DNA from: Vezdaea acicularis
Lineage: Eukaryota
DNA length: 64,000 nucleotides
Assembly: GCA_026025075.1 (NCBI GenBank)
Contig: JAPEUI010000003.1
Location: 248,001 to 312,000 of the forward strand
Reading direction: 5' to 3'
Part shown: one piece after another, positions 17,392 through 25,046 of the stretch
Position numbering within the stretch: position 1 is the first letter of the stretch
How the letters are laid out: every line of letters starts with the position of its first letter
The notes under the pieces: model-generated
Told to the model about the DNA's origin: nothing
Seen by the model: only the letters and a program-made list of their open reading frames with translations
Databases searched by the model: none
Program-made: the position numbers and the translations under genes

Positions 17392-20300
17392 ATGGGTCAA
17401 GGCTACTCGACCACGGCATTGCCTACAGGCGGCCCTGGTATTGACGTCGCGGAGCTCTCAGACCTCACGCCGGAAAAGATTTTGGGTAATGGAAGGTTCA
17501 TGAAATCAATACGAGCTCGTCACCAGGATGGTATCGTCTTCGTTAAATATGTTGCGAAGCCATATGCCAATATGAAGCTTGACAAGTATGTCAAAGCCAT
17601 TCTTAGTACGGACATGCCTAACACTACGATGGACTTGATATCTGATTCACAGAACAGATGAGAGAAAGCTTCTTTCCAATATACCGAATGCGCTTGGGTA
17701 TAAAAGAGTGTTGGAAACTCCTACGAGTGGTTACTTGGTTAGACAGTACCACTATAGCTCCTTATACGACCGAATGAGGTACGTTCATCTGTCCAAGTTA
17801 TGGATCACTGGCTAAGAGTATAGCACTCGCCCTTTCCTAGAGGATGTGGAAAAGAAATGGCTCTCGTTCCAACTCCTATGCGCTGTCAGGGACTGTCATG
17901 CTTTGGATGTCTATCATGGCGATATCAAGACGGAGAATACCCTTGTTACATCTTGGAACTGGCTCTATCTCTCGGATTTCTCCTCCTCTTTTAAACCGAC
18001 ATACCTTCCTGAAGACAATCCTGCAGATTTCTCGTACTTCTTCGATACTTCCGGTCGCCGAACATGCTATTTAGCCCCTGAGCGTTTCCTGGGGCCGGGG
18101 GAAAGGGCTGAGGGAGATGCTAAGCTTACTTGGGCTATGGATATCTTTAGCGTTGGTTGTGTCATTGCAGAACTGTTCACTGAGTCGTCCATCTTCTCTC
18201 TAAGTCAACTCTTCAAATATCGGAAGCGCGAATATGATCCAGCGCATTCTCATCTGAGTCGAATCGAAGATCCAGAGATTCGGGCCATGGTATCACATAT
18301 GATTCAGGTTCAACCCGACTCGAGATACTCAGCTGATGAATATCTGAAGTTTTGGCGAAGGAAAGCATTCCCGGATTATTTCTATAGCTTTTTACACGAT
18401 TACTTAGGCCTTATCACAGATCCGTCATCTGGCCGAGCTCCGGTTACGGCAGGGACCACCAATTACGGAGAGGCTGATGACCGGATAGATCGAGTTTTCT
18501 TTGATTTTGACAAGATATCTTATTTCCTGGGCTATGAGAATGAACCTCCATCTGAGGGGGGAAAACTTCCGCAAAGCACTTATACTATGGAGTCTCTTCC
18601 AGTGTGCCTTGATATCCCGAACAATAGACATCAAGCTTCGCTGGTGGGTCGAAAGCCCGCAGATGATGGAACACTGATTTTCTTGACACTTGTTGTATCC
18701 TCTCTGAGGCATACTGCAAGGGCAACGGCAAGGGTTAGGGGGTGCGATCTCCTCCTCGCTTTTTCGGAACGGCTTAATGATGAAGCGAAACTCGATCGTG
18801 TCTTGCCATACGTTCTCTCTCTGTTGAATGATCGATCCGACGTTGTCAAGATGGCTGCGATCAGGACCTTGACCCAGCTTGTAAGTTGATACCGTAGCGC
18901 CAAAGCATGACTTTCTAATAAGTTTACAGATGTCGCTTGTTACCGTCGTATCACCCATTAATGCATACATATTTCCGGAGTACATCTTACGAAGACTTGA
19001 GCCCTTGATTCCAAGTAAGGACAACAACCCTAGTCCCACTGTCCGTGCTACCTACGCTTCCTGTATCGCTACCCTAGCGGAAACGGCCGCTAGATTCCTA
19101 GATATGGTACAGTCTTTGAAGACAGACGGCTCATTGCCAACTACCGACCCTGATATGGATGATGGCATAACATCCGAAGGTGCCTATCAGGCTCTTTATG
19201 ATTCAGCCTATAACGCTCTTATGGACCATTTTGAAACACACACGAAAGCTCTTTTAACTGATTCTGATTCCTCAGTTCGTAGGGCGTTCCTTGGGTCCGT
19301 CTCGAGGCTATGTGTATTCTTCGGGACTAACAGGGCCAATGATGTTATTTTGACCCATTTGAATACCTATCTAAACGACAAAGACTGGATGCTCAAATGC
19401 GCGTTCTTTGAGACGATAGTAGGTGTTGCAACTTTTGTCGGTGGTACGAGTCTCGAGGAATTTATCTTACCGTTAATGGTCCAAGCTTTAACGGACCCAG
19501 AAGAATTCGTGGTTGAGAAAGTTATTCGGTCTTTTGCAAGTATGGCAGAGCTCGGCTTATTTCAACGATCCAAGACTTGGGAGCTTTTCGATGTCGTTGG
19601 ACGTTTTACAATGCATCCAAACATCTGGATAAGAGAAGCTAGTGCTTGCTTCTTATCATCTTCGACGATATATCTATCTAAAGCAGACATACATTGCATC
19701 ATAAGCCCATTAATGCGACCTTACCTGAAGACCCCAAGTTCCACGTACACAAGCCTCGCTTTGCTTAGCACATTGAAACCTCCTCTACCTCGAATCGTCT
19801 TCGACATGGCGGCGTCTTGGGCGAATAAGGTGGATCGCGGAATCTTCTGGAAACTAGCAAAACAGCAGCGTACATTTTCGTTCGGCTCCTCGAATGATTC
19901 AATACCAACAATTTTAGCAACGGAGTTAGGCGACAAGGTCCTCCACAAAGTGCCCAGAAACGATGAGGACGAGCAGTGGCTCAGTCGCTTGCGGAATATG
20001 GGTATGACGCCAGACGATGAGTGGAAGTTGTTAGCGTTGCGAGAGTACATATGGCGGATGGCAAAGTCGAGACCTAAAGATGGTCCTGGAAATAGTACCA
20101 CTCATTTAAATGCCGTCATCACTTTAAAACAGCTTGACATTACTCCACAAACCATTTTCTTCGAGGATAAAAAGGCCTTCGACGATGAGCTTCCTCTTGG
20201 AGCTGAAGAACCACCTCATACTATTGCTGATGCTTTATTGGATGCTTCTACGAGCATTGACGATCCGATAGCTCGTCGAAAAAGGTCTATAGCAAATAGA

Positions 20301-22525: not shown

Positions 22526-23463
22526 CTATTCCTCCATCGCATCAGCCAATGCCCCACCCGGTATCCTCCCCTCATTCAGCTCCTTCTCTAGCTTTGTGAT
22601 CTCTTGCAAACTCTTCGCATTCCGTATCATCTCCTCCACGCGCTTCTTCTCCCTCTCCGTAAGCTTGACCCGGTACTGCTTGCCGCCGTTGAGTGCACTA
22701 TCCGTTGTGCTCGGAACATCGAACGTCCTTGACTTTATGCCCATGATTTTCGATGCAAGAGCGGACGGCTCGTCAATGGTACCGAAGAGCTCTATAGCCT
22801 TCTTGCGCTCGACATCTTTTACTTTTTGGTAGTCGAGGAAGCGTACGGTGGGGCACCGCCAGATTACCCAATAGCGATAGTTCTGGCCGTACTCGTCAGA
22901 AATACGTGAGAGCTTCGCGCTGGCGGCTTACGTACCTCTCTCCTCGTTACCGGGTTCTCCATCAGTATTAGGTGTGTCAACTTCGGGAAGCCACTCAAAG
23001 GATCTAGGTCCGCCAGCTCAGCTATACTGTTCGCAGTCAAGACTAGTGTTGTTAGGTTCGGTATTGCATTTGGCAAAGACTGCTGTATGCTAGAGACACG
23101 ATTCCTTGCTAGCAGTAATGTCCGTAGTCGTGGAGAAAGTGGGAAATTTGACAGGGCGGTAATATCATTGTCTGTGAAGTCGATCGCATCGTGATCCTAA
23201 TTTGCGCTCAAGTCTTTCAGCCTGTGTCCTTGTCGATGGCTCCGCTTGAGGGAAACGCACCTTTGCAACACCCAGATTCTCAATTGCTGGTATCTTATGC
23301 CCTATGTAGCGCCACCGAGGGCGCCGTATCAGTGAAGCTCGTTGTGCAAATGTAGTATCTGCTCTTTTCAAAATGGACACGAACCTCGTAAGTCTAGTTC
23401 GCGCTCCTTGAGGGGATTGAGGTAGGATAGAGCGGACTGGATGAGTTCCGCCGTTAACCGCAT
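22526..23463 (-). CDS. LEA1: U2 snRNP protein A' (LRR), 4 exons; introns 23302-23384, 23197-23260, 22883-22935
   Basis: MRLTAELIQSALSYLNPLKERELDLR|GHKIPAIENLGVAK|DHDAIDFTDND..., ENPVTRRE|NYRYWVIWRCPTVRFLDYQKVK, EMIRNAKSLQEI. Confidence 0.96.
23347..23370 (-). promoter_or_regulatory. Intronic element complementary to U2 snRNA branch-recognition region (putative splicing-regulatory element in LEA1 intron 1)
   Basis: Plus strand CAAATGTAGTATCTGCTCTTTTCA versus recalled fungal U2 CAAGUGUAGUAUCUGUUCUUUUCA: 22/24 identical; function inferred. Confidence 0.6.
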
Positions 23464-23684
23464 AGCTACAGGGTGTTATGTGGTGGGATTGGTGGAATAA
23501 TTTACTGGTTCCTTCTCATGCAGATATCTCGTGAAGATCGCGTGAGGTGATTCGCGAACTACACCACCGGGTTCTAGAGCTCTATACAGCCCTTACATGG
23601 GTTGAAGCGAAATACAGGGAACATAATAGCATCGGCATACTTTCACAAATAATTCATAGTTTTAATATCGCTCTTAGAACAAAA

Positions 23685-25046
23685 ATGAGCGGTAGTAATG
23701 CCGTTTTATGGGTACCGTTAGACAGGACCGAGAAAGTCAAAAAGCAGTTACACGACTCCAGGTATTGGAACCGCGACTGCAGGCTACACAAGCAAGACGA
23801 TGGCATCTCATTCTCTATCCTGTGCTACATTCTCCCGGACGATTCTCCCGATCTTATCAACCGTCTTCAGAGAGATATCTTGGTGGATCTTGGCATCCCG
23901 GAGTTATATTCTCCCGGCGCATTGCGCCGTCAGGCATCAAATTATCATCCTCTGCAGACCCGGACCGTCTTTTCTCCAAGAGAGCTTGCGTTGAAGGATT
24001 GCTTTCCTGGTGGCGTTCCCGAAAATGTCGCAAAATTTAGTGGACGGATGAAGGAAAAGATCTACCCTCCGCTACTTATCCTATCGGGGGAGTTGCCTGC
24101 GCTGTCCCCGGAGCTTCAGGCGCGGTTTTACGAGCGTCTCGCTACCCATTATGCACTCAAGGACGTTACTCATATTGCGATTGAAGCCCCTATTCCTGAA
24201 TCCGGCGATGGAGGTCCAAATTATCTCCGCCTACCTGGTGGCTTTCGGCCCGTCTACGGAGATTTTGGCAAACGGGTTGAAGGGGACCCAAATCCCCAGG
24301 ATCTGAAGGAGGCTCTCTTCGTGTCGTGTATGCAGAACGGGATCAGACAGACATGGGCACCATTGTATACCATGTTCTCTAGAGGCAACGTTACTGAAAA
24401 ATTGAGGATTCTTAAACTTCCAACCCTCCAACCGCCCATAATAGATCCGACACAAACCACGGCGGTTGATCTCTTTGCGGGGATTGGTTATTTTGCATTC
24501 TCATACGCGAAAGCTGGGGTGTCGAAAGTCCTGTGCTGGGAGCTCAATCCCTGGAGTGTAGAGGGTCTTTTAAGAGGGGCTGAATTGAACGGATGGAATG
24601 CGACGAAAGTGTCAGAAGATGCTCTTTTAGATAGTGTGGACTCAAAAAAGCTGCTTGTGTTCCAAGAGAATAATTCGAAAGCGCTAAAGAGGATACGAGC
24701 TATGAGGCATGTGCTACCACCTGTCAGACATGTTAATTGCGGGCTTCTGCCTACATCGTCGGAGGTTTGGGCTGATGCAGCGCGGGTGTTGGATCCTGAA
24801 GTAGGTGGCTACATTCACGTACATGAAAATGTGAAAGTTTTGGAGCCTTTCGATCTAGTCAAAAAGCAATTGGAGATCGTCAAGGAATTTGAGGCGTTTA
24901 TCGAGGGCAGCAACAAGGTCGTTGAATGTGAGCATGCCGAACGCGTTAAGAGTTATGCACCAAAGATGTGGCATTACGTATTTGATATTCATATACTTTC
25001 AAAAGTGTCGACAGCGCCTCTACAATCTGAGAGTACCAGCTCTTGA
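23685..25046 (+). CDS. TYW2: tRNA wybutosine-synthesizing protein 2 (aminocarboxypropyltransferase), intronless
   Basis: QNGIRQTWAPLYTMFSRGNVTEKLR, VDLFAGIGYF, WELNPWSVEGL, HVNCGLLPTS, IHVHEN, RVKSYAP; first ATG at 23685. Confidence 0.92.
   Translation: MSGSNAVLWVPLDRTEKVKKQLHDSRYWNRDCRLHKQDDGISFSILCYILPDDSPDLINRLQRDILVDLGIPELYSPGALRRQASNYHPLQTRTVFSPRELALKDCFPGGVPENVAKFSGRMKEKIYPPLLILSGELPALSPELQARFYERLATHYALKDVTHIAIEAPIPESGDGGPNYLRLPGGFRPVYGDFGKRVEGDPNPQDLKEALFVSCMQNGIRQTWAPLYTMFSRGNVTEKLRILKLPTLQPPIIDPTQTTAVDLFAGIGYFAFSYAKAGVSKVLCWELNPWSVEGLLRGAELNGWNATKVSEDALLDSVDSKKLLVFQENNSKALKRIRAMRHVLPPVRHVNCGLLPTSSEVWADAARVLDPEVGGYIHVHENVKVLEPFDLVKKQLEIVKEFEAFIEGSNKVVECEHAERVKSYAPKMWHYVFDIHILSKVSTAPLQSESTSS

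Follow-up and report, generated by a model that had tools for sequence, protein, structure and literature searches.

Why should an intron of a gene for a core protein of the U2 small nuclear ribonucleoprotein (snRNP) carry a long stretch antisense to the U2 small nuclear RNA (snRNA) itself? The question is raised by a locus in 64,000 nucleotides (nt) of Vezdaea acicularis (GenBank assembly GCA_026025075.1, contig JAPEUI010000003.1, positions 248,001 to 312,000 of the forward strand), hereafter the window, in whose own numbering all plain coordinates below are given. The antisense element, TTGAAAAGAGCAGATACTACATTTG, lies at 23347..23371 on the minus strand, within intron 1 of a gene of the U2A'/LEA1 type. 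A first-pass annotation of the window, made from the letters alone, had proposed that U2 binds there unproductively and that U2A' output is thereby coupled to U2 levels. The sequence comparisons described here indicate that the element has very probably been selected to pair with U2. The narrower reading, that it is a bulge-less inhibitory decoy for U2 which exerts negative feedback on U2A', has in our judgement a little better than an even chance of being right.

Laid by eye against the published U2 of Saccharomyces cerevisiae, from which the U2 of the host species may differ, the element forms 25 contiguous predicted pairs with nt 29-53, of which 22 are Watson-Crick and three are G-U (at U2 G53, U44 and G32), and the first base outside on either side is a mismatch. 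The first-pass annotation had counted 24 pairs; the long contiguous complement stands, and the number is corrected to 25. The U2 sequence that it used is correct for S. cerevisiae, as can be read from two papers, one of which prints nt 1-51 (PMC3177201) and the other nt 31-126, with numbering anchored by the mutants G53A, U50 and A52 (PMC4712673). An anti-U2(35-55) oligonucleotide used in Schizosaccharomyces pombe covers the same U2 core (PMC1865046). The paired span of U2 takes in the GUAGUA branch-recognition sequence together with the remainder of the branchpoint-interacting stem-loop region, and also the 5' strand of stem IIa: the UACUAC core of the element pairs with GUAGUA (nt 34-39), and the 5' third of the element pairs with nt 47-53, the stem IIa strand. 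Judged as a branch site, the element has the complementarity to GUAGUA and lacks the bulged branch adenosine, whose absence from the UACUAC core the annotation had already noted; the predicted duplex runs through the core without a bulge. RNAduplex gives intron 1 of the window a duplex of -33.2 kcal/mol with a 24-nt stand-in for U2, namely the reverse complement of positions 2769-2792 of a related locus (L001:2769-2792), which by eye equals yeast U2 nt 30-53. Such energies leave aside the structure and the proteins of U2 itself. The predicted structures are without a break in most orthologues.

This likeness is confined to one place. The element is single-copy in the 64-kb window even when three mismatches are allowed, and none of 100 shuffles matched. 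As a background we used 33,487 windows of 60 nt, on both strands of the 64-kb window and of all distinct related loci (293,436 bases), with the region from exon 1 to intron 2 excluded by coordinates. The background duplexes have a mean of -10.2 kcal/mol, a standard deviation of 2.9 and a minimum of -24.2, and none of the 33,487 reaches -25 kcal/mol. Intron 2 (23197..23260, minus strand, 64 nt) is free of a U2 complement and serves as an internal control; across the same genes, 40 distinct intron-2 sequences have a best duplex of -19.9 kcal/mol and a mean of -11.7. Comparable matches, which the first-pass annotation had left to be counted, are therefore absent from 293 kb of window and flanking fungal DNA and from the 40 second introns. 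The best background duplex within the window itself (17786-17860, minus strand, -23.3 kcal/mol) involves the G-U-rich GGAAAGGGCGAGUGCUAUACUCUU and looks like chance.

The relatives that inform on conservation are at least 66 metagenome loci found by their match to exon 3, with 50-84% identity to exon 3 of the window. All ortholog counts below (58, 56, 47 and 46) are drawn from the matches listed among those loci; some of these contigs are near-duplicates, and counts were made on distinct sequences. The contig ends before intron 1 in 8 of the 66 listed loci, and exons 1 and 2 could be placed in the other 58. An intron occupies exactly the same phase-1 position in 56 of the 58, and the remaining two (L024 and L066) read through. 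There are 47 distinct intron 1 sequences, that of the window included, and in 41 of them the predicted duplex is at or below -25 kcal/mol, the lowest being -37.4; the other six give -23.2, -23.2, -20.8, -19.9, -13.9 and -13.2 kcal/mol. In element-bearing relatives, exon 3 is from 84% down to 56% identical to that of the window. Over 46 distinct introns, the element columns yield a majority consensus that matches the reverse complement of U2 nt 30-52 without exception, and since this 23-nt identity occurs once in 293 kb, the likeness to antisense U2 is not a product of chance.

On a maximum-likelihood tree of exons 1-3 with 59 rows, which was midpoint-rooted with no outgroup defined, a strong element is found in 48 rows and in all major ingroup clades, and the expectation of the first-pass annotation that orthologous introns should carry it is borne out. 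It is weak in nine rows, at four places: the clade of L044, L046, L049 and L052; the group of L027, L029 and L030; L053; and L064. One ingroup row has lost the intron. L064 and L066, both on long branches, stand apart from the rest at the midpoint root, and L066 is without an intron at this site. The protein of the window lies closest to a protein cluster whose commonest phylum is Ascomycota, and we infer from gene structure and intron size that the ingroup belongs to Pezizomycotina.

Over 1,035 pairs, mean pairwise identity is 0.757 in 23 element columns versus 0.426 at fourfold-degenerate third positions of exons 1-2. The fourfold-degenerate sites of the flanking exons are near saturation, and the rest of intron 1 is hardly alignable across the relatives, a second conserved block excepted. 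Because the element has been kept across clades despite near-saturated synonymous sites, the comparison argues that it is old and under purifying selection. A neutral captured fragment of U2, or a decaying insert, was also considered and is excluded by conservation across a divergence that saturates synonymous sites.

What kind of constraint is this? Applied to 34 of the 46 distinct introns of 40-200 nt (leaving aside 12 divergent or degenerate ones: L004, L008, L010, L027, L029, L033, L037, L040, L044, L046, L054 and L055), RNAalifold finds no conserved pair within the intron, and intron 1 of the window folds no better than its shuffles (z -1.04). Rfam 15 holds no family for the element, and the likeness to U2 ends at 25 nt. 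With no fold in cis, no Rfam family and a 25-nt limit, the constraint appears to bear on the linear sequence, as is expected for pairing in trans. A U2 gene or pseudogene on the opposite (plus) strand was considered and rejected: the U2 covariance model (RF00004) has no match on either strand of the region 23000-23700 at E values up to 10, the flanks do not continue U2 by eye, and the changes are strand-asymmetric. Rfam at gathering score finds no U2 gene in the 64-kb window, a scan of 20 related loci gave no family match, and a U2 pattern scan had 0 matches in genomic contigs and 0 in viral contigs.

The substitutions point in the same direction, with less force. Scored against the presumed partner, 24 columns of 46 sequences hold 921 Watson-Crick, 78 G-U, 92 mismatch and 13 gap cells, where several of the mismatch cells come from lineages with a one-base insertion that were scored as mismatches in the column count. 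By parsimony there are 51 A<->G events in 11 columns, which keep a pair with U, and four C<->U events in four columns, which also keep the pair; against these stand 12 U<->C events in five columns and five G<->A events in three, together with 28 transversions in 23 columns. Pair-keeping transitions thus number 55 in 15 columns (about 3.7 per column) versus 17 pair-breaking ones in eight columns (about 2.1), with a chi-square of about 3.9. Three columns, facing U45, U44 and U38, produce the bias; in each of them A and G alternate 10-11 times. The C columns, four in number and facing G43, G37, G34 and G32, hardly vary. The first-pass annotation had taken the departures from perfect complementarity for G-U wobbles of the sort expected under selected pairing; across the relatives this holds in direction, and falls short in strength. 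The excess of A<->G changes is support, not proof, for pairing of the intron-sense strand with uridines of U2. The main evidence for the predicted pairing is the conserved exact complementarity.

The identity of the host gene matters for any feedback. The gene (22526..23463, minus strand) encodes about 245 amino acids from a start ATG at 23463, in four exons (23463-23385, 23301-23261, 23196-22936 and 22882-22526, the last including the stop) separated by three short introns of 83, 64 and 53 nt. In a Pfam scan made exon by exon, exon 3 matches LRR_9 with an E value of 7e-28, and the LRR_9 evidence covers exons 3 and 4. Exon 3 also matches the U2A' chains in structures of spliceosomes from fungi, fission yeast and human (Protein Data Bank; best E 1.7e-34). 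From the LRR_9 domain and these structures, together with the gene model and its translation, the gene is assigned to U2A'/LEA1, and the host is indeed a core U2 snRNP protein gene, as first annotated. Intron 1 (23302..23384, minus strand) is an 83-nt, phase-1 intron of the form GUUCGU...AUAG (GT..AG at the DNA level); its sequence and coordinates, re-read, are exactly those of the annotation. The exon 1/2 junction, ...LDLRG/HKIPAIENLG, is continuous in the two relatives without the intron, L024 and L066.

Within intron 1 the order of parts is conserved. The donor is GUGCGU in 30 of 46 distinct introns. The duplex starts 6-36 nt into the intron (median 12), and in the shortest introns (64-68 nt) directly after the donor hexamer. 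The second conserved block, GAGCU-N3-UUGAUAUC (GAGCU-N3-(U/C)UGAUAUC; 23340-23326 on the minus strand of the window), starts 2-21 nt past the element. Its first half, GAGCU, lies at 23336..23340 on the minus strand; GAGC is found in 35 and GAGCT in 29 of the 46 distinct introns. Both halves of the block are near-palindromic (GAGCUC, GAUAUC). By eye, the block makes no convincing pairing with the element, the 5' splice site or yeast U2, the sole match being one of 5 nt between UUGAU and U2 nt 27-31. A loop motif of the U2B''/U1A type (AUUGCAC-like) was tried for AUUUGCAC of the window and for the second block, and was discarded, since the aligned introns show no conservation of it.

The second half of the block contains a putative branch site, CUGAU (23328..23332, minus strand), whose presumed branch adenosine at 23329 is 27 nt from the 3' splice site; the ordinary branch site that the first-pass annotation had placed downstream of the element is thus there as a motif, and its role as such is probable. 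In 37 of the 46 distinct introns the stretch downstream of the element holds a yURAy motif whose A is 8-50 nt from the 3' end. The motif is UUGAU in 34 of the 46, with the A mostly 21-27 nt from the acceptor, and the spacing from element to branch site is 10-21 nt. Laid by eye against GUAGUA, GUUG[A]UAU forms a continuous helix, mostly of wobbles. The downstream yUGAU is probably a weak branch site that has been conserved in its weak form.

Were intron 1 retained, 45 of the 46 distinct introns would put a stop codon in frame, and only 11 of them have a length divisible by three. The 83-nt intron of the window frameshifts the mRNA when retained, as had been claimed, and the first in-frame stop is then a UGA at the very start of the element (23371-23369, minus strand), 14 nt into the intron. 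L001 and L023 are alike in this, with the stop again where the element begins and 14 nt into the intron.

Several lineages depart from this plan. In L044 (593-644) and L046 (2838-2890), and in L049 and L052, whose intron is identical, intron 1 is only 52-53 nt long and is without the downstream branch block. A one-base insertion in this clade changes GCUACAC to GCUUACAC (GCUAACAC in L044), so that an A at 11 nt from the acceptor could bulge out; among the matches listed, no other clade has such an inserted base. Here the presumed former decoy appears, from its sequence, to have become a working branch site and the only one. L027 (2231-2337) and L029 and L030 (2856-2959) carry a degenerate element, AAAAG-ACCAGAUACCUCACUGAC, with a predicted duplex of -20 to -23 kcal/mol, whose 3' part, CACUGAC, resembles a good branch site; perhaps the element was here converted to a branch site a second time, independently. 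L024 (98-214) and L066 (61-171) have no intron at the site, and the frame reads through ...LDLRG-H/Y.... L024 sits inside an element-bearing clade and is a precise intron loss. Intron 2 is absent in 16 loci, where exon 2 abuts exon 3 (for example L027-L030, L033, L041, L054-L057 and L060-L063), and intron 1 is kept in all those relatives with upstream DNA except L024 and L066, that is, more faithfully than intron 2. At 53% identity, L064 (1026-1346) has a 318-nt intron at the same site that contains AAAAAGAACAAGGAUUACUAAU, a UACUAAU branch-like motif after a short complement of U2 nt 43-51; its duplex of -13.2 kcal/mol may be chance.

How might such an element act? In the functional, assembled U2 snRNP the target region is folded as the branchpoint-interacting stem-loop, and SF3b and associated factors cover it. 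That U2 binds the element in vivo and that this binding inhibits are steps that we infer, as are the form in which U2 is sensed and what becomes of the unspliced RNA. As an inhibitory decoy, the element would be a trap of 21-25 nt that pairs with U2 nt ~29-53, locks GUAGUA in a bulge-less helix and unzips stem IIa of U2. Stem IIa favours branch-site association and prespliceosome formation, and stem IIc opposes both, according to the introduction of PMC4712673. A trapped U2 could not form stem IIa, because its nt 47-53 would be paired with the intron, and the trapped particle could not branch, because there is no bulged A, the 5' splice site is 6-36 nt away and stem IIa would be unzipped. Held 10-21 nt upstream of a weak branch site in an intron of 64-133 nt, it would block or delay productive assembly. 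The unspliced transcript would encode a stub of 30-50 residues and, owing to the early in-frame stop, no U2A', and would probably be degraded. More accessible U2 would then mean less U2A' output, a negative feedback on a core U2 snRNP protein. We speculate that the trap may preferentially catch open or incompletely assembled U2 particles, in which the branch-recognition loop and the stem IIa strand are unpaired, for example particles short of SF3a/SF3b. The fullest version of this idea, to which we would give rather less than an even chance, is an antisense trap ancestral to a large group of filamentous ascomycetes that reads open, assembly-incompetent U2 and throttles the synthesis of U2A'.

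A number of points weigh against the decoy with negative feedback. Access to a 25-nt target is uncertain, because the region is folded and protein-covered in the functional particle, and the logic of the feedback is not self-evident, since productive splicing of intron 1 also needs U2. The element begins anywhere from 6 to 36 nt after the 5' splice site, so a fixed clash with U1 is not a conserved feature. That the host fungi have the same U2 as yeast is deduced from the S. cerevisiae and S. pombe sequences and from the consensus of the element itself. The wobble bias is modest, about twofold and borderline, and pair-keeping C->U changes are rare. Finally, the L044/L046 clade fits a pro-splicing origin of the element as well as it fits a decoy.

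This last point leads to the rival that survives best, in which the element is a U2-recruiting enhancer that hands U2 to the UUGAU 10-21 nt downstream and so promotes U2A' expression or efficient constitutive splicing. The downstream branch site is wobble-paired and conserved as weak (UUGAU in 34 of 46 introns), and for that reason may need help; the element keeps a tighter spacing to the branch site than to the 5' splice site; and the insertion in the L044/L046 clade gives a CUUAC-type site where the downstream site is gone, which implies that the element sits where U2 can act productively. A helix of at least 21 pairs that includes the stem IIa strand would, however, need full unwinding before U2 could be transferred, and the weakness of the branch site need not have been kept for so long unless weakness is useful in itself. 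We know of no hand-off of U2 from such an element, and consider the enhancer unlikely, though the likeliest of the rivals to the decoy.

In a different reading the element is the branch region for an alternative, unproductive splice to a nearby AG, such as that in GAGCU, which would give a frameshifted mRNA. In 35 of 46 introns a conserved AG (in GAGC) does follow the element at a distance of 2-20 nt, and the resulting mini-intron would be about 47 nt in the window, a common size for introns in filamentous fungi. The predicted duplex, however, has no bulged adenosine to branch from, the conserved AG is always GAG, the poorest context for a 3' splice site, and the distance from the 5' splice site to the supposed branch would be just ~25-30 nt in the shortest introns. 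We give this alternative only a slim chance. Slightly slimmer still are the prospects of a role for the excised intron in trans, where a lariat or linear RNA would titrate U2 like a sponge or escort it like a chaperone. In favour, the RNA sequence of the element is conserved without a fold in cis, the element would stay whole in the excised intron, and its predicted duplex is very stable (-26 to -37 kcal/mol). Against this, U2 far outnumbers one short intron of one moderately expressed gene, and the conserved weak branch site is left unexplained. Least probable of all, and by our estimate highly improbable, is that U2 has no part in it and that the site binds a protein, acts as DNA or belongs to a transcript of the other strand (a U2-like fragment or pseudogene), the likeness being coincidence or neutral capture: the near-invariance of the C columns, although C->U would keep pairing, hints at further constraints, and the GAGCU of the second block has no explanation through U2, but the 23-nt consensus matches antisense U2 exactly and uniquely, a neutral insert would not outlast the saturation of synonymous sites, the likeness stops at 25 nt with nothing found by the Rfam U2 model on either strand, and the excess of A<->G over U<->C changes marks the intron-sense strand as the functional one.

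The inhibitory decoy has partial precedents. The U11 snRNP-binding splicing enhancer (USSE) of animals and plants is a tandem mimic of the U12-type 5' splice site, which binds the 5'-splice-site recognition sequence of U11 and activates an alternative 3' splice site. Binding of the U11 snRNP to this conserved element in the U11-48K and U11/U12-65K mRNAs leads to unproductive isoforms, as described in PMC5473595. As with the USSE, the intron studied here carries a conserved complement of an snRNA, and its host pre-mRNA codes for a protein specific to the snRNP in question, here U2A'; the further parallel, that binding leads to unproductive mRNA in a homeostatic feedback, is proposed by analogy, with intron retention as the outcome. 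It differs in that a single-copy 25-nt antisense to the branch-recognition sequence and stem IIa of U2 takes the place of tandem U11-binding repeats, and in that the major spliceosome of ascomycetes is concerned.

Other systems share a part of the design each. In the autoregulation of U1A, a polyadenylation-inhibition element in the 3' untranslated region of its own mRNA mimics an snRNA hairpin and binds the protein. There too an snRNP protein gene carries an snRNA-related sequence for feedback, which for U2A' is a proposal; the U2A' pre-mRNA differs in being antisense to the snRNA, and would bind RNA, not protein. Compared with a canonical branch site of the UACUAAC type, the UACUAC of the element pairs with the same U2 nt 34-39, but it has no bulged adenosine, forms 25 predicted pairs and not ~6-7, invades the 5' strand of stem IIa, lies too near the 5' splice site in the shortest introns and is followed by a separate weak branch site. 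Intron retention brought about by decoy exons and decoy splice sites is described in PMC6097662, for example in intron 4 of SF3B1, and the proposed likeness is that splicing is held back when parts of the spliceosome engage without product inside an intron of a gene for the U2 snRNP. The decoys there are cryptic exons, bounded by ordinary splice sites and lying in long introns of mammals, and not an extended complement of an snRNA. Lastly, the cU2(35-55) oligonucleotide of PMC1865046, already cited, targets the same U2 nucleotides as the element in order to detect or block U2; the element is, in contrast, encoded in the genome, conserved and placed in cis in the U2A' pre-mRNA.

A full-text search of the literature, in which most subscription journals lay outside, returned no U2-complementary element in an intron of U2A', LEA1 or SNRPA1 and no such feedback on the U2 snRNP. 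That an snRNP can be kept in balance by a complement of its snRNA, carried in the pre-mRNA of the snRNP's own protein, is a known principle. What differs here is the snRNP (U2, of the major spliceosome), the lineage (filamentous ascomycetes), the bulge-less 25-nt "super-branch" that reaches into stem IIa and is coupled with a weak branch site, and the proposed outcome of retention.

The balance of the major spliceosomal snRNPs is a largely open matter, and the clearest RNA-based feedback belongs to the minor spliceosome, with U11 and the USSE. If the inhibitory decoy is real, it would be the first decoy feedback from an snRNA to a pre-mRNA known for the major spliceosome, and decoy and branch site would be interconvertible in evolution by one inserted base, as in the L044/L046 clade. 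It would provide a testable homeostatic circuit for the U2 snRNP and a natural probe of how accessible the branch-recognition sequence and stem IIa are in vivo. The same logic may be sought elsewhere, in long snRNA complements within the introns of snRNP protein genes.

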